Positions 17,014-32,270 of a stretch of DNA of 64,000 nucleotides are shown piece by piece. Position 1 is the first letter of the stretch; the number at the start of each line of letters is the position of its first letter. The translations under genes and the position numbers were made by a program. The notes beneath the pieces were generated by a model, which ran no database searches, had not been told where the DNA came from, and saw only the letters and a program-made list of their open reading frames with translations. The stretch is taken from the NCBI GenBank assembly GCA_905235045.1, contig CAJOJO010000009.1:4241-68240 (forward strand), read 5' to 3'. The DNA comes from an uncultured Bacilli bacterium (lineage in GTDB: Bacteria > Bacillota_I > Bacilli_A > RF39 > UBA660).

Positions 17014-17108
17014 ATTATTCCTCCTAACAAAATTATATCATTATTTTAAAAGAATGCTATTAAAATTTATAAATTTATGATATAATAAGCTCTAATTGGA
17101 GGGATATT

Positions 17109-17753
17109 ATGTTAAATTTAGAAGAAAAGTATTATGATACAAGTGTATTAACAATTATTTTAGAAAGTGTTTTTGAAAAATCACCTGAACAAATAAGAAA
17201 AAGCATTGAAAATGAAAAAATTACTATTACCGATGATGAAATTAAAAAATTTTTAGATGATAATGTAAAATCTAATAAATATAATTATGAACCATATACA
17301 TTAAAATATTTCAAAACTTATACAGATATATTAAGAGAAAAAGTTAATTCATTATTATACATTATTGAAAATTTGGATAAAAAAGAAATTGACTTAATTA
17401 AAGAAACACTTATTGATTTAGATATTAATTTAGATGAAAATAATAATATTTTAAAAAGCGATATTATTCGTTTATTAAAACCAACTATCTTTAATATTAA
17501 TATTTTAAAAGGGAATGTTAGAAAAGCTAATAATGTTAAAACTTATTTAGATTTTAATATCTCATTAGATTCAATATATATGGATGGATTTACAGAAGAA
17601 GAAATTTATCCAAATAAATCACTACAAATTAAAAACTTATATTACAATCATACACCAGGTAATGTTGATTTATCAGAAAATCAAGTTGCTGAATTAACAG
17701 AAGAAGATAGAAAAAAAATGGTTTATTTCTTGGATATAATGAATAATAAATAA
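17109..17753 (+). CDS. Hypothetical protein (214 aa)
   Basis: GGAGGG RBS. No motif match. Ends at the hairpin that starts the 37-bp repeat. Confidence 0.4.
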   Translation: MLNLEEKYYDTSVLTIILESVFEKSPEQIRKSIENEKITITDDEIKKFLDDNVKSNKYNYEPYTLKYFKTYTDILREKVNSLLYIIENLDKKEIDLIKETLIDLDINLDENNNILKSDIIRLLKPTIFNINILKGNVRKANNVKTYLDFNISLDSIYMDGFTEEEIYPNKSLQIKNLYYNHTPGNVDLSENQVAELTEEDRKKMVYFLDIMNNK

Positions 17754-17756
17754 AAG

Positions 17757-17793
17757 AACTCACTATTAAGTGAGTTTATTTTTATATGGGGCG
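17757..17793. repeat. Left copy of 37-bp direct repeat: terminator hairpin + duplicated 3' tail of tRNA-His (att-like)
   Basis: aactcactattaagtgagtttatttttAtatggggcg matches 32164-32200 at 36/37. tggggcg is the reverse complement of the tRNA-His 3' terminus. Homology stops exactly there. Confidence 0.5.
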
Positions 17794-17917
17794 ATAACAA
17801 AGGTTATCTGAAACCCTAAAGTAAAAGTTGATAAACAACTAATTCCTATAAACATTATAGCAAAATGATACTTGATAGATTATCATATCATATTTTTATA
17901 TTTTTCTATCTATATAT

Positions 17918-18058
17918 TTATTTATTTTTAATTGGTAATGGTTTAATTAAACTACCAATTTGTATATTTTCGTTATCTATCATCTTATTTTGCATTTTAG
18001 TTTTACTTTCTAATTGTAATAACATTAATTTAAGTACTAATAACTGTTTTTTTGTCAT
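17918..18058 (-). CDS. Small ORF (46 aa) with strong SD, unknown function
   Basis: AAAGGGGGAGAG 6 nt upstream of ATG. MTKKQLLVLKLMLLQLESKTKMQNKMIDNENIQIGSLIKPLPIKNK. More credible than the overlapping plus-strand 104-aa low-complexity ORF. Confidence 0.3.
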   Translation of the reverse strand: MTKKQLLVLKLMLLQLESKTKMQNKMIDNENIQIGSLIKPLPIKNK

Positions 18059-18124
18059 ATACTCTCCCCCTTTATTTGATAGACCATACTATAACACTAT
18101 TTTCTTTATTTGTCAATATAAAAG

Positions 18125-18150
18125 CTCACTATTAAGTGAGTTTATTTTAT
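18125..18150. terminator. Third copy of the ctcactattaagtgag hairpin terminator (no tRNA tail)
   Basis: ctcactattaagtgagtttatttta is identical to the hairpin part of the 37-bp repeat, followed by a T-run. Intrinsic terminator structure (7-bp stem, 6-nt loop). Confidence 0.5.
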
Positions 18151-18283
18151 TCAACCATTATAACGTATCCATAATATAGAATAAATACTAGTAGTAATAT
18201 TAAACCTTCTTTTCTTGAAATTATTCTATCTGTAGATGAAAATATAAATAGCAAAAAGGCAGCTAAAATCGTAGTCTGCCTCC

Positions 18284-19249
18284 TTATTTTATATCTAAAT
18301 AACATTCTTTTTTTAGAAAATCAAATATTTTTTTATCATTATCTGTTTCATAGTAATCAATTAGTAATTTTTTGTATTTATTTACTTTTTCAGCAGGAAT
18401 TACAATCATCCCTTTACCTTTTGAAATTAAGTAATGATTAGCAAATATAACTGAAGTTCTTTTATTACCATCAATAAACATTTGTTTTTTTACAACATAT
18501 AATAATAATTCAATTGCTTTATCAACATCATTACTACTACTATTAACAATATTATTTATATCATCTTTAATATCAGATTCAATTGGTAAAGATGGTTTCC
18601 ATGTTGTCCCACCGATATCTACTGATACACTTCTTAACATACCAGCATTATAATAAAAGCCTTCTTCAACTAATTTGTTAATCATACATAATATTGAATA
18701 ATCTGTTTTTGATAAAATAACATTTTTATTTAAAACAAATTCCCAAGCATGTTTTAAATTTACAATCTTTAATATGTCATCTGATGACATATTATTTACC
18801 TTACCACCTTCAATAATATTTTCAGTATCAGATAAAGTTGTTGCCACACCTTCTAATATTGCTTGTTTATAAATAGTATTAGCTAAATTTTTTTTAGCAA
18901 AATCAATATTATTACTTACTTCATAAGTTAATTCTTGATCTATATAATTTAGTTCTTTTAGTTCCTTTTCTATTTTTTTAATTTCTTTTTTTAATTCTTT
19001 TGCTTTAACATTATTATTTAAAATTAAATTATATAATTCATCACTATATTCACCAATATATTTAGATTTTTTAATACCATTTATTCTTACGTGAGTATAA
19101 ATATATTTATTATTGTTTTTTTTTCTTATTTCGATTGAACCATATATTAGTTTTTCTAATTCTACTTGCTTATTTTGTTTTATATTTAGCAAACTTAATA
19201 TTTTAGCTTGAGTTTCCATAGTTATCACCTCAATATAATTATAACACAA
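18284..19249 (-). CDS. Fic/Doc (Fido)-like protein with degenerate active-site motif
   Basis: C-terminal QMFIDGNKRTSVIFANHYL resembles the Fic motif HxFx(D/E)GNGRxxR, but H is replaced by Q and G by K. N-terminal coiled coil. Confidence 0.4.
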   Translation of the reverse strand: MCYNYIEVITMETQAKILSLLNIKQNKQVELEKLIYGSIEIRKKNNNKYIYTHVRINGIKKSKYIGEYSDELYNLILNNNVKAKELKKEIKKIEKELKELNYIDQELTYEVSNNIDFAKKNLANTIYKQAILEGVATTLSDTENIIEGGKVNNMSSDDILKIVNLKHAWEFVLNKNVILSKTDYSILCMINKLVEEGFYYNAGMLRSVSVDIGGTTWKPSLPIESDIKDDINNIVNSSSNDVDKAIELLLYVVKKQMFIDGNKRTSVIFANHYLISKGKGMIVIPAEKVNKYKKLLIDYYETDNDKKIFDFLKKECYLDIK

Positions 19250-19314
19250 AAAATAAAAATGTGGAACTTTTTTTATATTTTTTTATAATTTTGTTCCACA
19301 TTTACTAAATACTA

Positions 19315-19659
19315 TTACATATTTTTTACACAATCCCAAATGGAATTCCATTTATCATCAATACGATTTTTTTCAAATACAATCTTTTTATCTTTTTTAT
19401 AAATATTATCTTCACTATCACAAAGCTCTGTTGATAAACAATAATTATATTGAATTTTTGCATTCACAGAAGAAATTATATAAAATGATATAGCTGCATC
19501 TAATTCATTGTTATTATCATCAAAATCTAATTCTATATTCTTTAATTCTTTATTATTTTCTAAAATATAATTACCAATTGCTTCACCAATATCTGGATTA
19601 TGAGCATAATCATTTTCCAAAAAATCTTTAATTTTTATTGTCTTCTTTTTATTAAACAT
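19315..19659 (-). CDS. Hypothetical protein (114 aa)
   Basis: ORF in the island cargo. No motifs. Confidence 0.3.
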   Translation of the reverse strand: MFNKKKTIKIKDFLENDYAHNPDIGEAIGNYILENNKELKNIELDFDDNNNELDAAISFYIISSVNAKIQYNYCLSTELCDSEDNIYKKDKKIVFEKNRIDDKWNSIWDCVKNM

Positions 19660-19678
19660 ATTTCCTCCTATTATTATA

Positions 19679-20566
19679 TTATAATTCTAGTGCTACTGCT
19701 TTAGAATTAGTTTTAAATTTATTTATTAATTGCAATAGTTCTGTATTATAACCTATATCAATAATAATCATTGTTCCAAATAAGGCACTTGGCATATTTC
19801 TTTTTCTTATTGTTCCCTTAATATTACGATAATATCCATTTCGAGAAATAATTGTTAGCGATCCTGAATAAGCTTTAATAAATTCTTCAATATCGTGCAA
19901 TCCTAATCCGCCAAAACTATTTGGTTTTGTCGAATTACCCATTTTAACAGCCCATGATATATATTCAGCATCATTATCGTGAAAACGATTATTTATGTAT
20001 GGTGCCACCACACATGGTATTGTAGCGCCACAATCAAATATAGAAAATCGCACATGTTGAATATTTGGATATTTTTGACCGCAACAACATATAAGATTAG
20101 TTTTTCCATGTGTTCTCGCATTTATAAATGCTTCACTTAAATATTTAATAATATAATCCGTTGCATCAATACCTAATGATAAATTCTTTAATAATTCGTC
20201 CTTTGCATATGTATCAAAACAATCCGTTTCATTGTTTAACAAATCATTCTCAAAATTTTTAAAATGAATAGCCGTATTTTTACTAAACATACTTGTATTA
20301 TTTCCAAAAATATCATGGGATAATAATATTTCTTTTATTTTATCGCTGATATTAATCATTGTGATAGTGTTGTCTGTAGTTCTTGCAATTTCATATAATA
20401 CTCCAATTATAACTATAATTTCCCCACACACAAATTTAGTTTTTTTAAAATCTAGTATTATATTATTCTTAGTCACACTTTTTATATGATTATATATTTG
20501 AATAAAACTTAAAAGTGTTTCCTCTTCATTATCAATATTTACAGGCATCTCAAACAAATATATCAC
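19679..20566 (-). CDS. GHKL/HATPase_c-type ATP-binding protein with N-terminal STAS-like region (no HisKA)
   Basis: N-box EAFINARTHG and G2-box GGLGLHDIEEFIKAYSGSLTIIS of Bergerat ATPases (SpoIIAB/RsbW-like). N-terminus has a STAS-like pattern (IILDFKKTKFVCGEIIVIIGVLYEI). Confidence 0.45.
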   Translation of the reverse strand: MIYLFEMPVNIDNEEETLLSFIQIYNHIKSVTKNNIILDFKKTKFVCGEIIVIIGVLYEIARTTDNTITMINISDKIKEILLSHDIFGNNTSMFSKNTAIHFKNFENDLLNNETDCFDTYAKDELLKNLSLGIDATDYIIKYLSEAFINARTHGKTNLICCCGQKYPNIQHVRFSIFDCGATIPCVVAPYINNRFHDNDAEYISWAVKMGNSTKPNSFGGLGLHDIEEFIKAYSGSLTIISRNGYYRNIKGTIRKRNMPSALFGTMIIIDIGYNTELLQLINKFKTNSKAVALEL

Positions 20567-20650
20567 CTACCACAAAATTGCATTACATAAGTATATTAAT
20601 TATATCATTTAGCACTATTTACATCAATATTTTTTGTATTTTTAAATAGT

Positions 20651-21262
20651 CTATTTTTCTTCATCATAAACTTCACTAATAACCCTATCTTTTAATGTAA
20701 CCTCTATTTTCGAAAGAATTGTTGCTGGATCTAAATCCTTATGATCATGGGATAATTGACATTTTTCCGGTTTAATAAAATATTGCACTTTTTCAGAACT
20801 ATCCTTCTTGCCAACATACAAAACAATTACTGTATTATTTTGTTTATCATGTTTAACATCAGTTTCTAACCAATAATTTGTATCAAGTTTAGTTTTTTTC
20901 TTTATTTCCGGAACATACCAATCATCAATTCGAATTAATTCAGCACTTTTAAGCATTGGTATGTTTAAAATTTTAAGACAATCTTTATATATCTCATCAA
21001 TATCATCAACATTAATTTCTTGATTACATATAGGGCAAAGTAAATAACCTCTAGGCCTATCATATTTTAATTCTTGTTCTTGATGTTTTATACAATGTAA
21101 ATGAATACCATTTTGACAACAATAATAATGTCGCTTCCAGTTTTCTTCTTTTTCATAAAAATTTGTACAATTACCATATGTTAAACTGTTTACAGTATTA
21201 GCCAAACTACATTGGCGAAAACAAATTTTATCATTATAACTAATTAAAACTTCACTTTTCAT
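20651..21262 (-). CDS. Cysteine-rich (zinc-ribbon-like) hypothetical protein
   Basis: Multiple Cys pairs (CFRQC, CC, CPICN) in a 203-aa protein. Confidence 0.35.
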   Translation of the reverse strand: MKSEVLISYNDKICFRQCSLANTVNSLTYGNCTNFYEKEENWKRHYYCCQNGIHLHCIKHQEQELKYDRPRGYLLCPICNQEINVDDIDEIYKDCLKILNIPMLKSAELIRIDDWYVPEIKKKTKLDTNYWLETDVKHDKQNNTVIVLYVGKKDSSEKVQYFIKPEKCQLSHDHKDLDPATILSKIEVTLKDRVISEVYDEEK

Positions 21263-21520
21263 AATTTAATCTTCCTTTATATAACTTTTTACTAATTAAA
21301 TTATATAATAAAAGTTGATTATTATCAATAAACTATCTATAGTTTTAGAGATCTATCTAAATAATTGGAATCTTGTAATAATTCAATACTACTATTGTTA
21401 AAAATTTTATACGCCTCTACTTTTGCCTTAATAATATTTTCATCAGTATTACAAAAGTTTTTAAGTCGGGATTTTGACTTAATTTAACTCATTTTTGTTT
21501 ATTTTTGTATTTTTTTGTAT

Positions 21521-22345
21521 TTAATTTACTAATTGATATATAGCTGTATCAGTAATCGTAAACATATCTAAAACATCATTTCCTATATATATTTGAACTT
21601 TTCCAAAGTCTTTTGTTTTTATAATTGCAATATTTGGTCGTGCATAATCTAAAATAGTATATGATAATCCATCAAATTGTGATGGAGCTAAAACACCACA
21701 TTCATTTCCAACAACTGGGGCTTTATCAAGAGGATATACTCGCCATGAGTCAGCTTCAGGACTCAAGTTTAATACTTTCTGATTTTTAACTTTTACATCT
21801 TTTAAATATTTCCACTCAGCTACACCTCTTATTATATTTGTATTATCCATAAAAAAAGCATCTTCTAGTTTCATTTGATTTGGTATACAATAAACACCGT
21901 CTTCATTTGGGAACCAGTCATCCTGTTTTCCTCTTCCAACTTCAATGTGACAATGAACACCTGTAGCTTTTCCTGCATTACCCATATTACCAATTTTTAC
22001 TCCTTGCTTTATAGATTGACCTACATAACAATTAATAACATTATCATGACCACATAAAAATGTAACATAATCAATGCTTCCATCAGCGAGTCTAACTTTT
22101 TCTATTGATTGCCACCAAACAAAGGCATAAGTTCTATTTATATTTACACATCTAACATCTACTGGAGCATAATATGGATATCTTATACCAGATCGTTCTC
22201 CTATAATGTCATTAGCTTCACTTCCCATATGTGATGGTGTATCGTCAGCACCCTGTGTGCAATACCAATCAGTAAAAGGACACAATACATCTTGTATTCC
22301 TCCTCTTATACTTTGCTGTCCTTTTTCCATACTATTCACCACCAC
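21521..22345 (-). CDS. M23 family metallopeptidase, endolysin-like (paired with holin)
   Basis: GQSIKQGVKIGNMGNAGKATGVHCHIEV matches the LytM/M23 C-terminal block (GxTGxxTGPHLHFE). Overlaps the holin gene stop by 14 nt (lysis-cassette arrangement). Confidence 0.6.
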   Translation of the reverse strand: MVVNSMEKGQQSIRGGIQDVLCPFTDWYCTQGADDTPSHMGSEANDIIGERSGIRYPYYAPVDVRCVNINRTYAFVWWQSIEKVRLADGSIDYVTFLCGHDNVINCYVGQSIKQGVKIGNMGNAGKATGVHCHIEVGRGKQDDWFPNEDGVYCIPNQMKLEDAFFMDNTNIIRGVAEWKYLKDVKVKNQKVLNLSPEADSWRVYPLDKAPVVGNECGVLAPSQFDGLSYTILDYARPNIAIIKTKDFGKVQIYIGNDVLDMFTITDTAIYQLVN

Positions 22346-22682
22346 TCATCTTTTCAAAATACTTTTTGAATGGTAGCTTAATTCCTAACTCACCAAGATT
22401 TTCATACACTGAAACTCCTTCAGTAGCTATGCACACAATCGCACTACCAATTAAAAACAAATTTACCTTAACAAAATAATCGATAGCAAATCCCAAGATT
22501 AATGCCACTACCCATGAAATTTTTTTTATAAATCCATCCCTAGAAATAGATGAATTTACTTTCTTATTTTTAATTGCTTTTAAATAGCCAGTTAGAATAT
22601 CTGAAAATACAAATATACCACATAATAGAAATAAAGTTTTAGGATTATTTACTTCCAATATTTTTTGAACAAATTCCTCCAT
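22332..22682 (-). CDS. Holin, TcdE/phage_holin_4_1 family
   Basis: 116 aa with 3 TM helices and a charged C-terminus. LFLLCGIFVFSDILTGYLKAIKNKK resembles the TcdE-type holin N-terminus. Directly upstream of the M23 peptidase. Confidence 0.55.
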   Translation of the reverse strand: MEEFVQKILEVNNPKTLFLLCGIFVFSDILTGYLKAIKNKKVNSSISRDGFIKKISWVVALILGFAIDYFVKVNLFLIGSAIVCIATEGVSVYENLGELGIKLPFKKYFEKMSGGE

Positions 22683-22772
22683 ATCATTTCCTCCTTTTAC
22701 AAGTTAATGATATATCAGTATCTACTAGATATTCACTAGACAAAAAAAGAATTTAGATATTTCTAAATTCTT

Positions 22773-23423
22773 TCAATTAAACTTCACAATATACCAATGT
22801 TCCTTCATTTTTTTAATTGAATTAACTCCATCAACAAGATTATTAATCTTTTTCTTATCAACTGATGAATAGATTATACTTGTTCCTTCATCCGGAAATG
22901 ATCCTATGATTTTAAACTCAATAAGTATATCTTTTTTATTAAACAAATGTATATATACTTCATCATTTATTGATAAATTTTTATATTGAGTAGGCAATTT
23001 TAAATAATTGTTTTCTTCTACCAAATCGAGTTGTTTAATATAATTTATAGCATTTACCCTGTCATCATATTTATTTTTAAATTCAATATTTAATTTAATA
23101 GTGGCAGGATTAAAAACAACAAATAAAAAAGTAAAAGTTGCTAAAAAAATTATTGGATAAACATCGCTTATAGTTTTAACTTCAATAAGTTTTTTGAATG
23201 ACAAAAATAATAATAGTATATATCCAAAAAAAATTATAAAAATTGGTGTTCCAACTAATAGCAAAACAATAATAAACAATTCATCGAAAAACCAAAACAA
23301 TACAAAAGAATAAACGAATAGTAAAAATTCAAAACATATCAATTTCATATTTGTTATATTTTTTAACATAATATCACTAACCTTTATTATATTAATAATA
23401 GCATGATTACCTAATTTTTTCAA
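22773..23423 (-). CDS. Polytopic membrane protein, candidate immunity protein for the RHS C-terminal toxin
   Basis: Four TM helices plus a C-terminal soluble domain. Sits immediately 3' of the RHS toxin C-terminus, the canonical immunity position. Confidence 0.4.
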   Translation of the reverse strand: MKKLGNHAIINIIKVSDIMLKNITNMKLICFEFLLFVYSFVLFWFFDELFIIVLLLVGTPIFIIFFGYILLLFLSFKKLIEVKTISDVYPIIFLATFTFLFVVFNPATIKLNIEFKNKYDDRVNAINYIKQLDLVEENNYLKLPTQYKNLSINDEVYIHLFNKKDILIEFKIIGSFPDEGTSIIYSSVDKKKINNLVDGVNSIKKMKEHWYIVKFN

Positions 23424-23568
23424 GTGAAATCTTTCTATTAAATTTTTAATATTTGCTAACTTTTTGATTATATTAGTATATTATCAAAAGTTTAATTTGT
23501 AATAATTAACAATAAAAATCTACGTGAAATAAATACGTAGATTTTTTAAATTAATACTGGACAATCTC

Positions 23569-25020
23569 TTATTTCATATTGTCATATAAATGATATCCTA
23601 AAGTAATATAATATGTATCTCTTGGATCATCACAAACTGAAGCGGTAAAACAATTTACATAAGTTTCAAGATTATTCCAGTGCTCTTTTAATTGATATAA
23701 CCCAGCTCCTGTCGTTAAGAAATCTAGATCATAACCTATTGCATTTCCTATATATCCAAAATTGATATTTCCTGCATCTTCGGGATCTAAAACTATACCA
23801 TTATACGAAAATGATTTGTTCCACTCAGGAGTTCGCTTTAAGTCAAATTTTCCTCCTGATCCAACATCTTCAACAAAATTAATTAAATTAACTACAGCAG
23901 GTTTATATTTTGTTTCAGCAATTACATCAGCTGCATTTTTTTTCAAAGTATCATTAAATTTTTTAGTTTTATCTGGAACTTTTTTCTTTTGTGTCTTTGC
24001 AATCGCTTTTTTAGCTTTTGAATTTTGACAATCAGTATTTACAAGGGAAATTGCTCCTACAATTACAACAGCTGCAACTATAAGTGTAAATAATCCATGT
24101 CCATCAGGATCAGTATAATTTATAGGGTTATTATTACAATATAAGTACATATTATATCCTAAAACCCCTGTATCAGTTGATAAATAATTATCAGCATTAA
24201 TAAATCTACCCCATAATGGATTATAATATCTACTATTTAAATAATATAGTTTAGTTTCTTTATCATAATAAAAACTTCTGTATCTATATGGATTAATATT
24301 TGCTATATGATTACTATTATTAGAAACATCTAAACCTGTACCATCCGTAATAGAAATTATAGTACCCCATGAATCATATTCATAATTTGCAACAATGTTA
24401 TTATTACTATCAATTATTTGTATAATATCATTTTGTGCATTTTTTACGTAATAATATGTATCATTATTATATTGTAATCCAATCAATCCATTTGCACTAT
24501 TTCGTAGATAATAAATAATGTCATTATTTCTTGTTTCAAAAACAACATCGTTATTCTCAATATAATAGCTAGTATCAACATTATTTATTGTCTTCTTAAT
24601 TCTTATGCCATCTTTGTCATATTTATAGTTGATTGATAAATTTAAATTACTATCAATATAACTTTCAAGCTGTCTACCATTTATCCATGTAAGTGATATA
24701 TTATTACTTATTGATGTTGGATTACCAATATTATCATATACTATAGAATTACCATTAAAAGTTGTTAATTGATCTGTCCAATCATGATTATTATATTCAA
24801 ATTTATAATTTTCTAATTGATTATATGTATCTAGTTCATATACTGTTTTTTTTGTCATATTACCATATTTATTATACTTATATCTTATTGTGATACCCAA
24901 ACTATAATCATCTTCTCTAATTAATTCATTATACTTATCGTAATAATATTTTTTTTCTAAAGTGTTATCATTATATATACAACTAATGTTACCTAATTTA
25001 TTATATTTATACTTTATCAA
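23569..25020 (-). CDS. RHS-repeat protein, C-terminal part: YD repeats, RHS core end, TM helix and ~150-aa C-terminal toxin domain (3' portion of a frameshifted gene)
   Basis: YD-repeat units. Core-domain terminus YYNPLWGRFINADNYL...NPINYTDPDGH (the DPxGL boundary), followed by LFTLIVAAVVIVGAISLV and a unique domain. Confidence 0.6.
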   Translation of the reverse strand: MIKYKYNKLGNISCIYNDNTLEKKYYYDKYNELIREDDYSLGITIRYKYNKYGNMTKKTVYELDTYNQLENYKFEYNNHDWTDQLTTFNGNSIVYDNIGNPTSISNNISLTWINGRQLESYIDSNLNLSINYKYDKDGIRIKKTINNVDTSYYIENNDVVFETRNNDIIYYLRNSANGLIGLQYNNDTYYYVKNAQNDIIQIIDSNNNIVANYEYDSWGTIISITDGTGLDVSNNSNHIANINPYRYRSFYYDKETKLYYLNSRYYNPLWGRFINADNYLSTDTGVLGYNMYLYCNNNPINYTDPDGHGLFTLIVAAVVIVGAISLVNTDCQNSKAKKAIAKTQKKKVPDKTKKFNDTLKKNAADVIAETKYKPAVVNLINFVEDVGSGGKFDLKRTPEWNKSFSYNGIVLDPEDAGNINFGYIGNAIGYDLDFLTTGAGLYQLKEHWNNLETYVNCFTASVCDDPRDTYYITLGYHLYDNMK

Positions 25021-28000
25021 ATTATTATTATTAGTATAGAAGTTCGCTTACCATTTGATACATAATCATATTTGGTTTCATAGTAATTATTTATTTTACT
25101 TTTAGTAATTCTTCCTAATTCGTCATATGTATTATCTAAACTAGAATTATCTAACAAGCAATTACTTATTCCATCGCCATCATTTAATGTATTATCTATT
25201 GTATGTGATGCATTATTTAATAAATATGTTTTTGAAACAATATTGTTATTTGCATCATAACTATATTTAATTGTAAAATTTCCATTTTTTAACATTGAAA
25301 GTCTCTTTGCCAAATCATACACATACTTAATTGAATTTTCGTTAGTTACTATTTTAAGTAAATCACCATTGCTACCATATTTATAATTATAAATATTATC
25401 CATAGTAGTTAATTTAATAATTCTACCAAATTCATCGTAATCAAATCGTATTTCTTGATTATTGCCATATTTAGAAGTAATTAAATTACCATTATTTGAT
25501 TCATATGTATTGGTCATCATTGTAATATTATTACCAATTTTAACTTTAGAAACATTTAAAAATTCATCATATTCATATTTGTAAATTCTATCATCTTGAG
25601 ATATTTGTGATATATGATTATTATTATTATAAATATAATTTATAACTTTATCACCTGAAGAAATTGATGATATTTGATTTTTATTATTATATTCATAATT
25701 AGTTATTATAATATCATTGTTATTAATTGATTTTATTAACCCTGACACTTGATCATATTCATATTTAGTAGTTTTAAAATTTGAATCAATAGTTTTTGAT
25801 ATAAATCTTCCATCAGTTGTATACTCAGCACTTTTTTCAATAAATTTGCTATTAGTTATACTTTCAAAATAAAATTCATATGCAGGATCACTATTAACTA
25901 AATCATCAATTATTAAATTATTATTTGATACTTTTAAAAACTTTTGTGTTTGCTTGTTTTTTATCACAAAACTACCATTATCATGTCTATCAAATTCGAA
26001 AAGTGAATTATCATTTTGATAGTTTGACATAATAATTGAACTATTACTTATTGTAATATATTTTTCAATAATTGAATGTTTTATTTTAAAATAATCAATA
26101 TTATTTATAGTTACTTTTTCAATTATCCACTTACAATGTGCATGTAAATCTTCCTGTATATTAACTAGATTATTAATACAATTAATATTATTATATGTAC
26201 CACTTTGTCTTATAATATATACTCCATCAACTATTTCTTTACATTGTCCTCTATTAATCATTTTTGTTGATACAATATTACCAAACTCATCATAATCATA
26301 CTCAGTAGAAATTCCTATTTCTGATACACCTTTTAAAAGTTTATTATCACTATCATATTCATATGTAAATTTTTGGCCTTTTGGATTTTTTGAACTAATT
26401 AATTGATTTTGAACATTATATTTATATTCAGTCGTATTATTATCCAAGTGTTTGGTTTTAATTATATTACCTTCATCATCATAATCATATGTGCTATTTC
26501 TAATATCTTTAAACATATTTATATTTGTTATATAAAACTCATTACCATTTAATTCTTGGTTAAAAATAATATTTACTGCATTAAAATCCCATGGAGCTAT
26601 CATTTGCGAAGAATAGAATTGCCATTCGTTTTCATTTGGATTAAGTGCTACTTCAAAAAATCCACCATCTGTTTGTTGTTGTTGAACCGGAATAAAACTA
26701 ACGAACACATTGCATCTTGTTCCACTTCCTAAACCTGTACCGCCTAATAGTCCTGTATGCTTATACCAAAATGATATATTAAATAAATCTCCTTCTCTAC
26801 CACATATATTTAGTCGTTGACTAATACTTGATGTATTTGAAGTATTCATATTAATTTTTAAGCAATTTACATTATCGACAGTAGTTGCTTCAAAAACAGA
26901 ACTAACCGGGAAATTTTGACCTGAATATTGTGTCCATTGACTTAATCCATTAGAAAAATCGGAATTTTCAATCATGTTATAATTATTTGCTACTTCACCA
27001 ATTTCTAATTGAAAATCGTCACAATAGTAATAACCAATTTCTTCCATTATAAGAATAATTTTCAGATTACTATTTGCATTTGATGGATAAAAAATTGTAA
27101 CATCATTTCTTTCAAATTCACTTTCTGTTGAAATAGTACTAGACGAAGATACTTCTTGATTATTTTCATCAATATAAGATAATCTAATTGTTAAATGTTT
27201 GTTGTCTGTTTTAAAATAACCACTAAAAGTATAGAATTTTCCTTTTTCTACAGAAACATCTTGATATGTCGATTGTACTGGATTTGCGCAAGTAATTCTT
27301 AAACTTTGGAAACCTGTATTAGCATAATTAGTAGTTGTTGTTAATGAAACATTATTATTTGGAACAAACAAAATATCATTTAAATCTGTACTTTCAAAGC
27401 TTGAATTTGTTAAAAAATTTTTAACATATCTTATAGGCATATTATTTTTTAAAAGTTTGTTTTTATAAGTGTTTTCACCAAAATATGATACACCATAATC
27501 AATATTTAAGCCATAACCATCATTAATATTGTTATATTCCTTTAATGTAGAAGTAGAAACAGGATTACCATAATCATTAAATGTTATTGTATTAGATCTT
27601 CCATACGAATCTAAAATTGTCGTTGCATTAAATCCATATGTTACTTCGTAATATTTTCCAAGTGTTTGATTACTACCATATTCACTTATTTTTTTTATTT
27701 TATATGGTAAATTACCATAATATTGATATTCTAATTTTTTTCCAGTAACATCTTCAATATCAGTAATTAAACTATTGTTATTATTTGATATACTTACAAC
27801 ACCAAGTGATGATTGAACGCTTATTAAATTATTACTATTATTATATGTTAAATAGAAAGTATCATCACTACTAATAATTGTTATTTGATTTGCGCTATAT
27901 TGAATGTTAATTTCATTTTCATTAACATCAGTAACTTTATTTATACGATTATTTGTATCATAGCTTATTGTTATTATATTATTGTTAATATCCTTAATTT

Positions 28001-29774
28001 CTGTCAAATATCCAATACCGTTTATTTTAAGAAATTTTTTTTCAGTTTTATTTTTATCTCTTAATATATAATAATTATCATTATTTTCTATTACTAAATT
28101 CAATCCATCCTCATCAAAAAATGTATTTTCATAAGTAGTAGTATTGTAGTTATTTGTATTATTATCATACATAACTCTTTGATTTAAAAAATAATGTATT
28201 GTCCCATCTTCGTCAATATATTCCAAATAATTAGTATTTTCAATTAATCGTGATTGTATTGTTTGATGATAATTTAATCTATATCCTATACCATAACCAA
28301 TATCATTCCCTAATACAACATCATTAGTATTATATACCAATTTTAAATTTGCCGGTAAATTACCTCCAATTGTTTGACCTATATTCATTATAGTTGTTAA
28401 ATTACCATTATAAAGATTGTGGCATATTTCACCTAAACTCATTTCTTGTCTTTGGTAACTCATATACTGTTCTAATCCATTTTGATTCCTATATGTTATT
28501 ATCAAATATGGTTTTGGGTTAGTACCTGTAACTGAATTGTTTTTTGAAAAAAACATAGGAATAATATCTGTTTTGTATACTTCATTACTTAATTTTAACA
28601 TCATACCATAGTTTGGAGTTTCTGTATACCATTTTTGAACTAAAGGAGTTATATCAGCACCTGATAAACTTAATATTATGTTACCATTACCATCTTCATA
28701 ATGAATTCTGCGACATATAAATGTTCCTTCTACTCTTGAATCAAATTTATCATTCATTGAATTCCATGTTGCTGTTGTTTCATCCCACGATGTTGTAATT
28801 CTATATATATTGACAATATCAGATGAATATGAAAATGTATAATCTGGATAATTTCGTAAATTTAATTTTGCTGAAATAACTTGACTTCCTGTTCCTAATG
28901 TGGGTAAATCAAATTTTAATAATGATCTATTTATTCTATCACTACCACTTATTCTTTCTACACCAACTTTTAAGAAATCTCTGCTATTTCTGTCATCATT
29001 TGTATCACCAGGATATATGTATGTGTCATACACATTACCATTTTGAGCATTATTCGTAATTGTTGGATCAATAATAACAGGATATTTAATACCTGAGTTT
29101 AACCACTCTTTATCAAGAATTGTTTTTAACTCATAACTATTATCTATTTTATTTAATTCATATTCTACATTGATATTAAGTTCACCACTTGAATCCATCA
29201 TAAATGGCACTTCAAACTTAAATACACATTCATCATTATTCATAGCGATTATACTATCATTTTCTAATTTTAAATCTAAATCAGTGTCAATCTTAAACAC
29301 TAATTTATCAATATCAGAATCTCTATCTTTTATATAAATGCTTTCTTTTACTCTAGATGAAACTAGATCATAACATATATCAACATTTTTTAAAACATTA
29401 ATATATTTTATTTTACCAATAAGTTTTGACATAGACTCTTCTTGTACTATATCAAATTGATTATAGTCTTTTAAAGAGAATGATATAAAATGATTATCTT
29501 TTTCTATTCTCATTAACTCAGGTTTAGGAACTGCAGTGAATAACACTTTATTTTCATTAGCTTTATTTACATAATGATCATCTTCTAAAATCAATGTGTT
29601 ATCAATTTCTTCAAACTTGCCATTATTAAAATAATGAATATTTTCATCATACATTTCTGCTCTGAATTCACCATTTTCTTGGAGAAAATGTTTTTCTTTA
29701 GGTCCTCTTTTATCGACTATTTCTATTTCTTTCATATTTACCTCCTTAATTTTTATATTTAGATAACTTTTCAA
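25017..29774 (-). CDS. RHS/YD-repeat protein, N-terminal 1585 aa (5' portion of a frameshifted gene), with beta-trefoil/lectin-like insert
   Basis: Dozens of YD repeats (YEYDSDNKLL, YDYDEFGNIV, YSYDANNNIVSKTY). Overlaps the next ORF by 4 nt in another frame inside an att-att-att run, and the YD repeats continue across the junction. Confidence 0.6.
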   Translation of the reverse strand: MKSYLNIKIKEVNMKEIEIVDKRGPKEKHFLQENGEFRAEMYDENIHYFNNGKFEEIDNTLILEDDHYVNKANENKVLFTAVPKPELMRIEKDNHFISFSLKDYNQFDIVQEESMSKLIGKIKYINVLKNVDICYDLVSSRVKESIYIKDRDSDIDKLVFKIDTDLDLKLENDSIIAMNNDECVFKFEVPFMMDSSGELNINVEYELNKIDNSYELKTILDKEWLNSGIKYPVIIDPTITNNAQNGNVYDTYIYPGDTNDDRNSRDFLKVGVERISGSDRINRSLLKFDLPTLGTGSQVISAKLNLRNYPDYTFSYSSDIVNIYRITTSWDETTATWNSMNDKFDSRVEGTFICRRIHYEDGNGNIILSLSGADITPLVQKWYTETPNYGMMLKLSNEVYKTDIIPMFFSKNNSVTGTNPKPYLIITYRNQNGLEQYMSYQRQEMSLGEICHNLYNGNLTTIMNIGQTIGGNLPANLKLVYNTNDVVLGNDIGYGIGYRLNYHQTIQSRLIENTNYLEYIDEDGTIHYFLNQRVMYDNNTNNYNTTTYENTFFDEDGLNLVIENNDNYYILRDKNKTEKKFLKINGIGYLTEIKDINNNIITISYDTNNRINKVTDVNENEINIQYSANQITIISSDDTFYLTYNNSNNLISVQSSLGVVSISNNNNSLITDIEDVTGKKLEYQYYGNLPYKIKKISEYGSNQTLGKYYEVTYGFNATTILDSYGRSNTITFNDYGNPVSTSTLKEYNNINDGYGLNIDYGVSYFGENTYKNKLLKNNMPIRYVKNFLTNSSFESTDLNDILFVPNNNVSLTTTTNYANTGFQSLRITCANPVQSTYQDVSVEKGKFYTFSGYFKTDNKHLTIRLSYIDENNQEVSSSSTISTESEFERNDVTIFYPSNANSNLKIILIMEEIGYYYCDDFQLEIGEVANNYNMIENSDFSNGLSQWTQYSGQNFPVSSVFEATTVDNVNCLKINMNTSNTSSISQRLNICGREGDLFNISFWYKHTGLLGGTGLGSGTRCNVFVSFIPVQQQQTDGGFFEVALNPNENEWQFYSSQMIAPWDFNAVNIIFNQELNGNEFYITNINMFKDIRNSTYDYDDEGNIIKTKHLDNNTTEYKYNVQNQLISSKNPKGQKFTYEYDSDNKLLKGVSEIGISTEYDYDEFGNIVSTKMINRGQCKEIVDGVYIIRQSGTYNNINCINNLVNIQEDLHAHCKWIIEKVTINNIDYFKIKHSIIEKYITISNSSIIMSNYQNDNSLFEFDRHDNGSFVIKNKQTQKFLKVSNNNLIIDDLVNSDPAYEFYFESITNSKFIEKSAEYTTDGRFISKTIDSNFKTTKYEYDQVSGLIKSINNNDIIITNYEYNNKNQISSISSGDKVINYIYNNNNHISQISQDDRIYKYEYDEFLNVSKVKIGNNITMMTNTYESNNGNLITSKYGNNQEIRFDYDEFGRIIKLTTMDNIYNYKYGSNGDLLKIVTNENSIKYVYDLAKRLSMLKNGNFTIKYSYDANNNIVSKTYLLNNASHTIDNTLNDGDGISNCLLDNSSLDNTYDELGRITKSKINNYYETKYDYVSNGKRTSILIIII

Positions 29775-30135
29775 TTTCTTTTTTTACATTTGGATAGTAA
29801 TTCTTCCATAATGTAGATACATCTTTATTTTCTTCTTCAGAAACTTTTTCAATTGCTTTAGAAACACTTGTCCCATTAATAACAATTTCTTTATATAATT
29901 TGTTTTCAATACCACTTAAATTACATATATCTTCTTCTATTTTTTTAATGACTTTGTTGTATTGGCTTATAGTTTTTTTAATCAGTTCTATTTCAGCTAA
30001 GATGCCTCTTTCATATTGAGTTAATAGTTTTAATCTTTCTTGCAAACTGTCTAACTCAACTTTTGTGTTAATATAGTTATCTATACATTTCATATAATAT
30101 TTCGCGAAAAAGAACATTACGCAGTTCTTTTCCAA
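29746..30135 (-). CDS. Hypothetical coiled-coil protein (129 aa)
   Basis: ORF between the tail-collar gene and the RHS gene. Overlaps both ends. Confidence 0.35.
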   Translation of the reverse strand: MEKNCVMFFFAKYYMKCIDNYINTKVELDSLQERLKLLTQYERGILAEIELIKKTISQYNKVIKKIEEDICNLSGIENKLYKEIVINGTSVSKAIEKVSEEENKDVSTLWKNYYPNVKKEIEKLSKYKN

Positions 30136-31289
30136 GTATATACTTCATATCTAAGTGGAGTTACACTGTGTGTATGTGAGTTTAAAGTATGTGTATGACC
30201 TTGTCCACCACCAGTGTTATTATTAGTAGCTGTCGCATTTTGTGTATAATAAGTTACTAAAGCTGCACCTGCATAGAATCCTGAACTACCAGCTGGTCTA
30301 GTGTCATAATGAGCTGGGTCATTCATCCAAGTATTGTTATTTTGTGCATGACTATGTGGGTTTTGAGTATGTGTATGGCTTGGCATTTGTGCTACGGTTA
30401 ATGCTGTGCTACCAGTTGTATTTGTACTTGGTCCACCTGATGTATTACTTCCTGCTGTGTTACCACCATCACCAGCATATAAATAATATCCATTAATTCT
30501 ATCCCATGTTCCACCAAATAATGTTGCTGGGCTTGTACTACTTACTGAAAGATAAATACTACCAACAGGATATATTAAATCAACAACTTCAGAACTAGTT
30601 AATCCACCACCAATTGGTGTACCATTAATTGTAAGTGAATTAGCAACTATGTTTCCAGCGTTGTCAATGCTAAATGTATTATTTTTAGACGTAATACATT
30701 TTGCAGTTAAATTATCTACTTCAATATTTAATTCATCTCCGATTTTTGTGAATGCGTCTTTGAAGTAAATGTCGTCTAGTGAGAAATCATCACACGCTTC
30801 AGTGTGTCTAGCATAAATTACACTATTAACGAATAGTCTGTTTAAATCATCATCTTTTGGATATACGATTATAATATCAGCATCTGTATAATTAGTATAA
30901 ATGTAATTAGTTCCTTCAAATAAAGTTATGTCTATAGTATCTAATTCTTCGACTACAGGTTCAGATAAAACTGAATTATCGCTTCCAATTAGTCTATTAA
31001 CATATGCCTCTAGAACTATCTTGTTATTCTTTAATGCTACTTTTTGAACTACTTCATCACCCTCCCCACTAGCATATCTTAAAATATCAGTAAGATTGAA
31101 AACATATTGTTTTCTATCATTACTAGGATTTGAAGATGATTGTTTATCAACATAGATAACCAAATCATTTTCATTTGGTGCTACTGATGTCGCACCCATC
31201 TTAATTTTTATCCCTAATGCTGCCGCATTTAGAGAGTCTTGTAAGCTGATTTCATTTGTACCGCTTACGCTTTGATTCGTTAAATTCAT
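30117..31289 (-). CDS. Phage tail fibre protein with C-terminal tail-collar (MdpB-like) domain
   Basis: IYPVGSIYLSVSSTSPATLFGGTW ... LTVAQMPSHTHT ... HSH ... GHTHTLNSHTH matches the phage tail collar domain signature (xPVGSIxxS ... FGGTW ... LTxxQMPxHxH). Confidence 0.6.
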   Translation of the reverse strand: MNLTNQSVSGTNEISLQDSLNAAALGIKIKMGATSVAPNENDLVIYVDKQSSSNPSNDRKQYVFNLTDILRYASGEGDEVVQKVALKNNKIVLEAYVNRLIGSDNSVLSEPVVEELDTIDITLFEGTNYIYTNYTDADIIIVYPKDDDLNRLFVNSVIYARHTEACDDFSLDDIYFKDAFTKIGDELNIEVDNLTAKCITSKNNTFSIDNAGNIVANSLTINGTPIGGGLTSSEVVDLIYPVGSIYLSVSSTSPATLFGGTWDRINGYYLYAGDGGNTAGSNTSGGPSTNTTGSTALTVAQMPSHTHTQNPHSHAQNNNTWMNDPAHYDTRPAGSSGFYAGAALVTYYTQNATATNNNTGGGQGHTHTLNSHTHSVTPLRYEVYTWKRTA

Positions 31290-31426
31290 ATTCTTATCAC
31301 CCTTTCTTGATTTAACACCTACATAGTAATTTAAACTTTACTGGATATTCACTAGACTTTTTTTCTTTTTTCAAAAAAAAGAAACAAATAGTTATCTCAT
31401 TTGTTTCCCCATTTAAATTTAATTTT

Positions 31427-31921
31427 TTATATAGTTTTCACATCTTCTTTAAAATTAAGTGTCAACTTTTGTCTAGCGCTAATTATAGATGCATAGACCG
31501 AGTGAACTGAACATCGTTCTATTTCAGCGATTTCTCGCAATGACATTTCATAAAAATAATACATTATTAATCTTTTCTTTTGAGTAACCGACAAACACTC
31601 AATAAATTTATATAATTGCTCACACATTATTTTATTAAAAACTATTTCTTCAACTGATCTAGGTTTATATCGTAAACGACGATATAATGTTTCCTCGATC
31701 ATTTCAGATTGTTCTATATGTCTTTCATATTTATGTCTTTGTGAAATTTCTTCTAATTTAAAATTATTAAACTCATTATAAATTACTTTATCAACTTTAA
31801 CGTAATTTTCTACATTTTTTGAATCCTTAAATATAACGTAATAATCCCCATTAATTATTATTAATTTATATGGATTATTAAATAACCTATGTATCACATC
31901 CAACCTCCAATCATTATACAA
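31427..31921 (-). CDS. ArpU-family / sigma-70 region-4-like transcriptional regulator (phage late-gene activator type)
   Basis: C-terminal LSVTQKKRLIMYYFYEMSLREIAEIERCSVHSVYASIISARQKL is a sigma-70 region-4 HTH. There is no region 2, so it is not a full sigma factor. First gene inside the island next to tRNA-His. Confidence 0.5.
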   Translation of the reverse strand: MYNDWRLDVIHRLFNNPYKLIIINGDYYVIFKDSKNVENYVKVDKVIYNEFNNFKLEEISQRHKYERHIEQSEMIEETLYRRLRYKPRSVEEIVFNKIMCEQLYKFIECLSVTQKKRLIMYYFYEMSLREIAEIERCSVHSVYASIISARQKLTLNFKEDVKTI

Positions 31922-32163
31922 AAAATGAATAATGGAGGTGATCTATTTTTAATAAAAAAAGTAGTTATTTTTAAATAACTACTTACTACTATATAATTTT
32001 TAAATTTAAATATTTGTACAACCTGTAAAATCATAAGCATGCCACCAAACTCTATGTGTTAAGATGGTACTGCTTAATATCTTAACTAAAAACTATAATA
32101 ATTATATAATAATTTTTATTAAAATTAAATATTTATTTGCAATAAATTAATTTTAATAAAAAA

Positions 32164-32200
32164 AACTCACTATTAAGTGAGTTTATTTTTAAATGGGGCG
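32164..32200. repeat. Right copy of 37-bp direct repeat (terminator hairpin + 3' end of intact tRNA-His)
   Basis: aactcactattaagtgagtttatttttAaatggggcg. Overlaps the tRNA-His 3' terminus at 32194-32200. Confidence 0.5.
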
Positions 32201-32270
32201 CGGTAAGGGATTCGAACCCTTGCATAATGGAACCACAATCCACCGTGTTAACCCCTTCACCAACCACGCC
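32194..32270 (-). tRNA. trnH: tRNA-His (anticodon GTG, with G-1)
   Basis: Reverse complement G-GCGTGGTTGGTGAAGGGGTTAACACGGTGGATTGTGGTTCCATTATGCAAGGGTTCGAATCCCTTACCGCGCCCCA. Anticodon loop TTGTGGT. Extra 5' G pairing with the discriminator C is characteristic of tRNA-His. Confidence 0.85.

Follow-up and report, generated by a model that had tools for sequence, protein, structure and literature searches.

A putative lysis-released, fibre-associated polymorphic RHS bacteriocin cassette in uncultured gut Bacilli

How RHS/teneurin-like toxins without a signal peptide leave Gram-positive cells and how they find their targets has been stated as an open question (PMC13018210, PMC12704120). The same question is raised by a 64,000-nucleotide stretch of DNA from an uncultured Bacilli bacterium (GCA_905235045.1, contig CAJOJO010000009.1, positions 4,241 to 68,240; hereafter the window, G+C ~25%), in which an RHS toxin gene lies between a phage fibre gene and a holin/endolysin pair. 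An initial annotation of the window had read this locus as a holin/endolysin-dependent toxin release system, and all seven open reading frames (ORFs) that it had named were found, all on the minus strand between 21521 and 31921, in the order regulator, fibre, a small ORF called 'mid', RHS toxin, immunity-like protein, holin and endolysin-like protein. We consider it moderately probable that the locus is one copy, here frameshifted, of a conserved, mobile, phage-derived and bacteriocin-like cassette which encodes a lysis-released, fibre-associated polymorphic RHS bacteriocin. The features of the cassette are, from the regulator onwards:

31427..31921, minus strand: small regulator with a beta-rich N-terminal part of ~70 aa, then a sigma-70 region-4 helix-turn-helix (HTH) (Sigma70_r4_2, Pfam, 3.9e-8)
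31378..31410, minus strand: hairpin and U-run after the regulator gene, likely terminator (RNA fold -10 kcal/mol, z = -3.4)
31323..31357, minus strand: promoter-like motif copy 1 (GTCTAGTGAATATCCAGTA, 10 nt, TACTAT), 50-70 nt upstream of the fibre start codon
30117..31289, minus strand: phage fibre / receptor-binding-like protein, 390 aa (Gp10_C, PF21939, 6e-14)
29746..30117, minus strand: small ORF 'mid', 123 aa, with an N-terminal coiled coil and a highly conserved C-terminal helical segment GIENKLYYEIVVNG...STIWKNYYPKVKK
25017..29735, minus strand: 5' part of the RHS gene, 1572 codons to a premature stop, with N-terminal beta-supersandwich, DNRLRE/CBM96, lectin-like inserts and YD repeats
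25036..25037, minus strand: site of a 16-bp deletion (TGCTGATTAAAAGTAT), from the alignment with loci L001, L003 and L004
23569..25020, minus strand: 3' part of the RHS gene, out of frame, with the last YD repeats, Rhs-associated core with NNPINYTDPDG, hydrophobic helix and Ntox44
22773..23423, minus strand: immunity-like protein, 198-216 aa, directly after the RHS gene, with 3-4 N-terminal transmembrane (TM) helices and a soluble C-terminal domain
22745..22774, minus strand: hairpin and U-run after the immunity gene, likely terminator (RNA fold -11.9 kcal/mol, z = -4.7)
22707..22741, minus strand: promoter-like motif copy 2 (GTCTAGTGAATATCTAGTA, 10 nt, TATCAT), ~41-60 nt upstream of the holin start codon
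22332..22682, minus strand: holin of the TcdE / holin_tox_secr family, 116 aa (Phage_holin_4_1, PF05105, 3e-19; TIGR01593; PHROG holin)
21521..22345, minus strand: endolysin-like protein, 269-274 aa, with a divergent M23 peptidase domain, then a wall-binding-like domain at the C-terminus

The putative cargo carries the repeats, the core and the DPxG-type cleavage motif of an RHS/YD-repeat polymorphic toxin, with matches to PF05593, TIGR01643 and TIGR03696 at residues 1792-1885 (Pfam, NCBIfam). Its C-terminal domain had been called unique; it belongs to the known family Ntox44 (PF15607, 1.9e-15), and all three defining motifs of this family (DxK, GNxxxG and DxxxD; PMC3482391) are found in the window toxin. 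In its fold, the N-terminus combines a CBM96 domain with a beta-supersandwich; a PDB profile search with it returned nothing. Instead of the single ORF of ~2070 aa that had been described, the window holds two ORFs in different frames, as the 16 bp of TGCTGATTAAAAGTAT are missing after 25037 at a site flanked by TAT microhomology. An intact RHS protein of 2060 aa is encoded in three near-identical assemblies (L001, L003, L004; 99.8-99.9% identical over 9.5-16 kb). Alternative genetic codes were rejected as a cause of the interrupted RHS genes in relatives, since the in-frame stops are single and of mixed type. The immunity-like protein that follows has no family match in Pfam, PHROG or NCBIfam; its place immediately behind the RHS gene is conserved.

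For the lysis genes, the assignment of the holin to the TcdE family was confirmed: it scores 69.6 bits against PF05105 (cutoff 22.2) and 62.1 bits against TIGR01593, 'toxin secretion/phage lysis holin' (cutoff 40.2), and its length and 2-3 hydrophobic segments agree with the TcdE / Phage_holin_4_1 class. The claim of an M23 peptidase gene overlapping the holin gene stands in part. The protein matches phage endolysin PHROGs (2.6e-18 and 1.2e-28) and has an HxH motif in the form HCH, while the Pfam M23 match stays below its cutoff; depending on the start codon chosen, the gene overlaps the holin gene by 14 nt or abuts it.

The fibre gene further upstream is likewise of phage type. Its 390-aa protein begins with a Dit-like beta-sandwich, continues with a helical segment and ends in a gp10/gp11-like domain with HxH motifs; it has no signal peptide. 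The earlier description as a tail-collar fibre holds as far as a phage fibre is concerned, with PF21939, a PHROG tail protein (1e-14) and phage genes annotated 'tail collar fiber' as matches, but not for PF07484, to which there is no match. By homology, the protein falls into the phage fibre / receptor-binding class. A tblastn search against phages gave distant matches only, to the C-terminal domain. In an AlphaFold2 monomer model, the predicted fold of the N-domain is close to that of phage Dit proteins and of FtbK, a monocin tip protein; the C-terminal half is poor (predicted local distance difference test score <50), and the interpretation is confined to the N-domain. The adjacent 'mid' protein has no Pfam, PHROG or PDB match (the PDB profile search gave coiled-coil noise only) and occurs in 15 of the 47 cassettes, possibly as a regulator or as a chaperone of the fibre. 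A relationship of 'mid' to the sigma-like family was rejected, as hhalign showed none.

Whether these genes belong together can be judged from their relatives. The family is not rare, given >3000 fibre homologues, 1057 cluster representatives of the RHS N-domain and 505 loci from a scan of 185,579 species-representative genomes for fibre relatives. Uncultured gut 'Bacilli', 'Tenericutes', Erysipelotrichaceae and CAG-type metagenome-assembled genomes (MAGs) account for nearly all of the best 80 of these 505 loci. Several host records bear the labels Tenericutes, Mycoplasma sp. CAG:776 or Clostridium sp. CAG:1000. Among 78 informative loci found with the fibre alone, an RHS gene lies directly downstream of the fibre gene in 71 (91%). 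The RHS gene is intact in 47 loci (1986-2132 aa, usually at a spacing of -18 to +510 nt from the fibre gene), cut by a contig end in 15, interrupted or atypical on first pass in 9 and absent in 7. A reciprocal search with the RHS N-domain recovered a Gp10_C gene 9-10 nt upstream in all three distant signal-less relatives (33-34% identical), one of which continues with a 203-aa ORF, an M23+LysM protein and a Phage_holin_4_1 holin. Dozens of species-level genomes carry the cassette, its proteins diverged to 33-60% identity, and the flanking genes vary by genome (isoleucyl-tRNA synthetase, penicillin-binding proteins, the coupling protein of an integrative and conjugative element and others). Fibre and RHS form a near-obligate gene pair. 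The initial annotation had also offered a fibre-associated targeting module as an alternative to release; the link to the fibre is borne out by the 71 loci, its status as an alternative is not. Besides, eight contigs with the cassette (L017, L023, L027, L034, L036, L040, L061, L074) come from MAGs labelled 'uncultured Muribaculaceae'; since the other hosts are all Bacilli-like, these contigs may be mis-binned or mislabelled.

Among the 47 intact RHS proteins, column conservation is 0.41-0.73 over residues 1-1900 and drops to 0.14-0.22 beyond the motif NNPINxxDxxG, which is itself conserved. The C-terminal toxins fall into 17 clusters, and families recognised among 22 representatives are Ntox44, Tox-REase-7 and Tox-WTIP. 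Across loci, the cluster of the ORF downstream co-varies with that of the toxin, so the expectation of the same cassette with different C-terminal/immunity pairs was borne out. With a hypervariable toxin domain and a cognate immunity gene downstream, as polymorphic toxins require, the cassette behaves as a polymorphic toxin-immunity system. Arrays of orphan RHS C-terminal fragments and extra immunity-like ORFs follow downstream in five loci (L030, L061, L077, L087, L090), with one Ntox44-like orphan in L090. Immediately behind the DxxG cleavage motif (window 24070-24130 equivalent), 22 of the 47 toxins start with a TM-like or glycine-zipper helix, and many of the remaining ones with a lysine-rich amphipathic helix; this leading helix may be a membrane-translocation element.

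As claimed initially, the RHS protein has no N-terminal signal peptide: a hydrophobic N-terminal stretch is present in none of the 47 fibre-linked RHS proteins (N-terminal consensus MKEIELIxKRKxREKHF) and in 2 of 47 fibres. A Sec-exported RHS toxin of the WapA type was rejected on this basis. The absence of a type VII secretion system (T7SS) context was confirmed too, as the cassette proteins and the scanned window ORFs contain no LXG/WXG domain or EssC, and no T7SS or other secretion genes were found across the 64-kb window; a T7SS LXG/WXG toxin was rejected accordingly. The 1057 cluster representatives come from an exhaustive HMMER search with RHS residues 1-230 (E <= 1e-10). The N-domain begins at the extreme protein N-terminus in the closest ~113 and at residue ~40-110 in a more distant group. 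Five of six fetched members of the distant group have classical signal peptides (P0300, P0304, P0305, P0288, P0311). A fibre gene is absent in all four signal-bearing relatives whose neighbourhoods were read (all five but P0288), and lysis genes are absent in all three with downstream sequence. In this small signal-bearing sample, signal peptide and fibre plus lysis genes look mutually exclusive, and the fibre-linked RHS family appears to be without a classical export route. Loci of the signal-bearing sister group are L169-L171, L175 and L176, and one MAG, JAAWSW01, carries both RHS types (L075, L175).

A link between the toxin and lysis genes is suggested by a promoter-like motif. The element GTCTAGTGAATATCCAGTA itself lies at 31339-31357 upstream of the fibre gene, and its second copy, at 22723-22741 upstream of the holin gene, has one mismatch, against a chance expectation of 0.13 matches per window at <=3 mismatches. 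Both copies stand behind a terminator hairpin. The consensus is TCTAG(T/C)G..nnTC(C/T)AGT, followed 10 nt on by a TATnAT-like, -10-like box, so that the CTAGT/CCAGT half-sites flank the -35 position. Upstream of the fibre gene, the motif is conserved in six diverged loci; it precedes both fibre and holin genes in the window, L008, L018 and L026, and a variant precedes the RHS gene in five further loci. In a position weight matrix scan of the 47 loci (1.77 Mb), 20 of 25 matches fell at fibre-, RHS- or holin-upstream positions. The toxin unit and the lysis unit thus appear to be co-regulated, and this cis element would be the most direct evidence that ties the two together. By contrast, a scan for consensus sigma-70 promoters was uninformative in the AT-rich DNA (135 sites vs 124 expected), and Rfam detected no known RNA within the window's cassette.

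The motif may be recognised by 'mid', by the sigma-region-4-like protein or by both. It is present in 13 of 15 'mid'-containing cassettes vs none of the 32 without 'mid', and 15 of 47 loci have a homologue of the regulator upstream of their fibre gene. For this regulator, the earlier label of ArpU/sigma-70 region-4-like survives in its second half. A PDB profile search matched region 4 of FliA and SigW only, the match to TIGR02937 is sub-threshold and covers profile positions 68-162 only, and Pfam, NCBIfam and the PDB profile search detected region 4 and a linker but no sigma region 2. This excludes the proposed sigma factor of the TcdR/UviA type (group 5). An ArpU-family phage late regulator was rejected as well, because TIGR01637 gave no match in NCBIfam at E <= 0.01. 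Six other cassettes have the pemK RNA motif, a cis-regulatory candidate, between the sigma-like and the fibre gene:

pemK RNA motif (RF02913, Rfam): L009 9848-9925; L041 9874-9931; L042 6106-6184; L043 9841-9920; L078 9781-9859; L089 4994-5071

Since both the 'mid' ORF and the TCTAGTG promoter motif are missing from these cassettes, there may be a second mode of regulation for the same cassette.

Lysis genes were counted in the 38 loci with >=2.5 kb of sequence downstream of the RHS gene, within 4.5 kb of it. A peptidoglycan hydrolase is present in 20 of these 38 loci: M23 endolysin homologues in 17, all additional to the window, Amidase_2 in 2 and another endolysin family in 1. The hydrolase genes are preceded by a Phage_holin_4_1 holin, by a superfamily V-type holin or by the small phage proteins phrog_4105 and phrog_13256, which makes at least three types of holin or small TM protein. 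The arrangement is polar, as the region upstream of the fibre gene gave one M23 match only and zero holin matches. Because non-orthologous holins and lysins replace one another at a fixed position, the lysis function is probably under selection. Taken with the conservation of the cassette, the common promoter motif and the exclusivity of the signal peptide, this replacement argues for the initial proposal that a signal-less RHS toxin is wired to a phage lysis module under a dedicated regulator. A fragment of a group II intron (D1-D4) lies at L089 12568-12738, between the RHS/immunity genes and a holin-Amidase_2 pair.

The same genes could also serve a non-lytic, holin-mediated export, as argued for TcdE/TcdL, in which the M23 protein remodels the wall locally and the producer survives. 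The affiliation of the cassette holin to the TcdE family (PF05105 / TIGR01593) would fit such a mode, but the endolysins look full-length, with a hydrolase domain and matches to phage endolysin families and no degenerate fragments, holin and lysin types are swapped as freely as in phage lysis modules, and the cargo is very large, a folded RHS cocoon of ~230 kDa plus a fibre that is expected to be a trimer like its phage relatives. We therefore regard non-lytic export as unlikely, although the two modes are inseparable by sequence alone.

The cassette appears to originate from a phage. Homologues of the fibre, restricted to its residues 1-131/157, are encoded on 75 phage contigs in IMG/VR. On one contig (L100), the fibre-domain gene follows tape-measure and distal-tail genes, and ~3.5 kb past it lie a small ORF (possible holin) and an M23 endolysin. 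The cassette resembles the 3' end of a siphophage late operon, because its gene order matches that of L100. It looks like such an operon end that has the RHS/immunity pair in its moron slot and has become stable as a unit of its own. An RHS homologue is absent from all 75 phage contigs with the related fibre domain, L100 included. In the window, the cassette lies in an island next to a tRNA gene:

32194..32269, minus strand: tRNA-His (ARAGORN and Rfam); the variable island begins just beyond its 3' end
32163..32200, strand not assigned: right copy of a direct repeat of ~40 nt, made up of a terminator hairpin and the last 8 nt of tRNA-His, att-like island boundary
17756..17793, strand not assigned: left copy of the direct repeat, ~40 nt, att-like, far boundary of a 14.4-kb island

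In a related strain without the island (L168), homology to the window stops at 32182. The window-specific segment comprises 17052-32181 (15.1 kb, adjoining tRNA-His), and the corresponding site in L168 holds only 1.07 kb with a gene of a cellulase family (L168 12926-14086). This strain-specific segment at a tRNA-His hot spot is the basis on which we regard the window cassette as accessory. The island has no integrase gene and gave no match in a megablast search of 50,697 phage records.

Such a setting also suits a decayed prophage end, in which a late operon has left fibre, holin and endolysin behind and the RHS/immunity pair is an unrelated moron without functional coupling. The order from fibre to holin and M23 endolysin is that of real siphophage late operons at their 3' end, the island combines a tRNA gene and att-like repeats with the lack of an integrase, and several RHS copies are pseudogenised. 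We nevertheless hold this explanation to be very unlikely. A compact cassette is found in dozens of genomes and varied chromosomal contexts without other phage genes, fibre and RHS are paired in 91% of the informative loci, the toxin and lysis units have a promoter motif in common, and the relatives that bear signal peptides lack the phage-derived parts. The scenario of a prophage remnant with a recent, unrelated RHS insertion, which would have refuted the initial annotation's proposal, was not borne out.

A further possibility is that fibre and RHS protein serve a tailocin or phage particle whose genes lie elsewhere in the genome, so that the RHS protein would be attached to the fibre or loaded into a tail and released by distant lysis genes. 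This would explain the homology of the fibre N-domain to phage fibres in their baseplate-proximal part, its Dit/FtbK-like fold and the existence of cassettes without local lysis genes. It is highly improbable: no tail genes or other phage structural genes were found within ~10 kb in the loci inspected or elsewhere in the 64-kb window, many fibres are short and lack the N-domain, and the phage contigs with a related fibre domain contain no RHS homologue.

Several observations weigh against the reading of the locus as a lysis-released, fibre-associated bacteriocin. The lysis module is part of the locus in the window, as proposed initially, but in about half of the related cassettes no such module was seen within 4.5 kb. 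At least L031, L040 and L052 are without a recognisable lysis gene behind the immunity gene, and in L040 and L052 housekeeping genes take that position; lysis genes are thus not obligatory in cis. The endolysin-like protein of the window reaches 27.0 bits against Peptidase_M23 (PF01551), with a cutoff of 28.7, over profile positions 49-90 only. The window RHS gene is frameshifted, and six related loci have certain or possible nonsense or frameshift interruptions, so the window copy may be dead, or the assembly may be wrong. Many cassettes have short fibre variants without the phage-like N-domain, and hidden Markov models of four RHS N-terminal segments found no baseplate-protein match in the 75 phage loci. 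Since the motif is limited to the 'mid' subfamily, its correlation with cassette genes is partly phylogenetic. Finally, all examples of the cassette are uncultured MAGs or metagenome contigs.

If a lysis-released and fibre-associated bacteriocin is nevertheless assumed, the following sequence of events can be proposed. The sigma-region-4-like protein and/or 'mid' would activate the specialised promoter before both units, and the fibre-mid-RHS-immunity unit would be expressed together with the holin-endolysin unit. RHS protein and fibre, both signal-less, would build up in the cytoplasm, the former as a YD-repeat cocoon around a swappable C-terminal toxin (here Ntox44), while the membrane-anchored immunity protein would shield the producer and its kin. 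Holin and peptidoglycan hydrolase would then lyse a fraction of the producers and free the cargo. Outside, the envelope of related Gram-positive competitors would be bound by the fibre and also by the RHS N-terminus, through its carbohydrate-binding modules (CBM96/DNRLRE, beta-supersandwich, lectin-like inserts). After cleavage behind NNPINxxDxxG, the toxin would enter the target, possibly aided by the hydrophobic helix at its start. Going one step further, we tentatively suggest a tail-less, phage-derived mode of delivery ('fibre-guided RHS bacteriocins'), widespread in uncultured gut Bacilli, in which a presumably trimeric fibre docks the RHS cocoon onto Gram-positive competitors after altruistic holin/endolysin lysis. 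If this is true, the fibre would set the target range and the swappable toxins the killing chemistry, and Gram-positive RHS toxins would have a third export/targeting solution beside Sec/WapA and T7SS.

The closest known systems each have part of this design. An RHS toxin in a holin/endolysin cassette had been thought unprecedented, but Yersinia Tc toxins already combine RHS-containing cargo with holin/endolysin release by a type 10 secretion system (T10SS) (PMC10847048); a description of the cassette itself was not found. In a search of the literature on RHS proteins with a holin, tail fibre or lysis cassette in Firmicutes, the only precedents were Tc/T10SS, PaLoc, MuF and WapA. Like YenTc of Yersinia entomophaga and other T10SS-linked Tc toxins (PMC10847048, PMC10847046), the cassette encodes a very large, signal-less toxin with an RHS-repeat cocoon next to or near phage-type holin and endolysin genes. 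Judged from its genes, it may also resemble these systems in release by lysis of a producer subpopulation under dedicated regulation. The combination that marks a T10SS, holin and endolysin linked to signal-less cargo, appears in the window and in the 20 of 38 related loci. Tc toxins differ in their Gram-negative producers, insect or eukaryote targets, a spanin and the lack of an immunity gene, whereas the cassette has a monoderm host and an antibacterial-type toxin/immunity pair. They also need the TcA injector and a TcB/TcC with beta-propeller, and in the place of TcA the cassette has a phage fibre. As no TcA, TcB or SpvB domains were detected in the cassette proteins, a Tc toxin complex was rejected for want of a TcA or TcB (SpvB / beta-propeller) partner.

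Among Firmicutes, the cassette is comparable to the Clostridioides difficile PaLoc (TcdR, TcdE, TcdL, TcdA/B) and to UviAB-BCN5 of Clostridium perfringens, where a large signal-less toxin or bacteriocin occurs with a Phage_holin_4_1 holin, a gene derived from a phage lysin and a small dedicated regulator with a sigma-region-4 HTH. Unlike in these loci, sigma region 2 is not detected in the regulator, the endolysin appears intact and not a remnant, and the unit that encodes the cargo, an RHS polymorphic toxin, also includes an immunity gene and a phage fibre. With tailocins (R/F-type pyocins, diffocins, monocins), it has in common a phage-derived, non-replicative weapon with its own regulator, a fibre as likely specificity determinant and holin/endolysin release, and its fibre N-domain is predicted to resemble a monocin tip protein. 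However, neither the window nor the ±10 kb on either side of the inspected loci contains sheath, tube, tape-measure or baseplate genes, for which reason an R/F-type tailocin was rejected, and killing would be enzymatic, by an RHS-delivered toxin with immunity, and not by membrane puncture.

WapA of Bacillus subtilis and Streptococcus suis (PMC12704120) is likewise a Gram-positive RHS polymorphic toxin: its N-terminus has modules that bind the wall or carbohydrates, DNRLRE among them, its C-terminal toxin varies, and it comes with immunity genes and orphan toxin modules. WapA has a Sec signal peptide and acts in a contact-dependent manner from the cell surface, whereas the cassette pairs a signal-less RHS protein with fibre and lysis genes. 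MuF toxins of temperate Firmicute phages (PMC5576092) are also polymorphic toxin/immunity pairs in phage-derived gene sets, but they are head-associated and belong to complete phages, in contrast to an RHS scaffold without a phage.

In this context, the cassette offers a testable answer to the question of export and target finding: the toxin would leave the cell by means of a co-regulated phage lysis module and reach its targets by means of a phage receptor-binding protein. The competitive weaponry of its hosts, uncultured gut Bacilli, is almost unknown, and a modular design of fibre, cocoon, toxin, immunity and lysis parts would suit the engineering of narrow-spectrum protein antibacterials.

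Outside the cassette, the remainder of the island (17865-21262) encodes a Fic/Doc-like protein (18284-19249), preceded by a small ORF (19315-19659), as well as a phrog_3364 protein (19679-20566) and unassigned ORFs, of 203 and 104 aa. They are not conserved alongside the cassette in other loci and may form a toxin-antitoxin or other accessory module. A third, weaker copy of the terminator-hairpin repeat (64% identical) follows the 104-aa ORF at 18104-18159. PADLOC was used to look for a known anti-phage defence system, which was rejected, as no cassette protein matched a model. The remaining genes of the 64 kb are housekeeping genes (AddAB-like, DnaB, MurA, TypA, CotJ, MreB, ClpB). Two proteins, encoded at 38320-40050 and 51558-55073, contain glycine-rich domains of the ALK/LTK type (PF12810), and the one of 1171 aa has a prepilin N-methylation motif as well. 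Their genes explain the local G+C peaks of 35-40% in the window.

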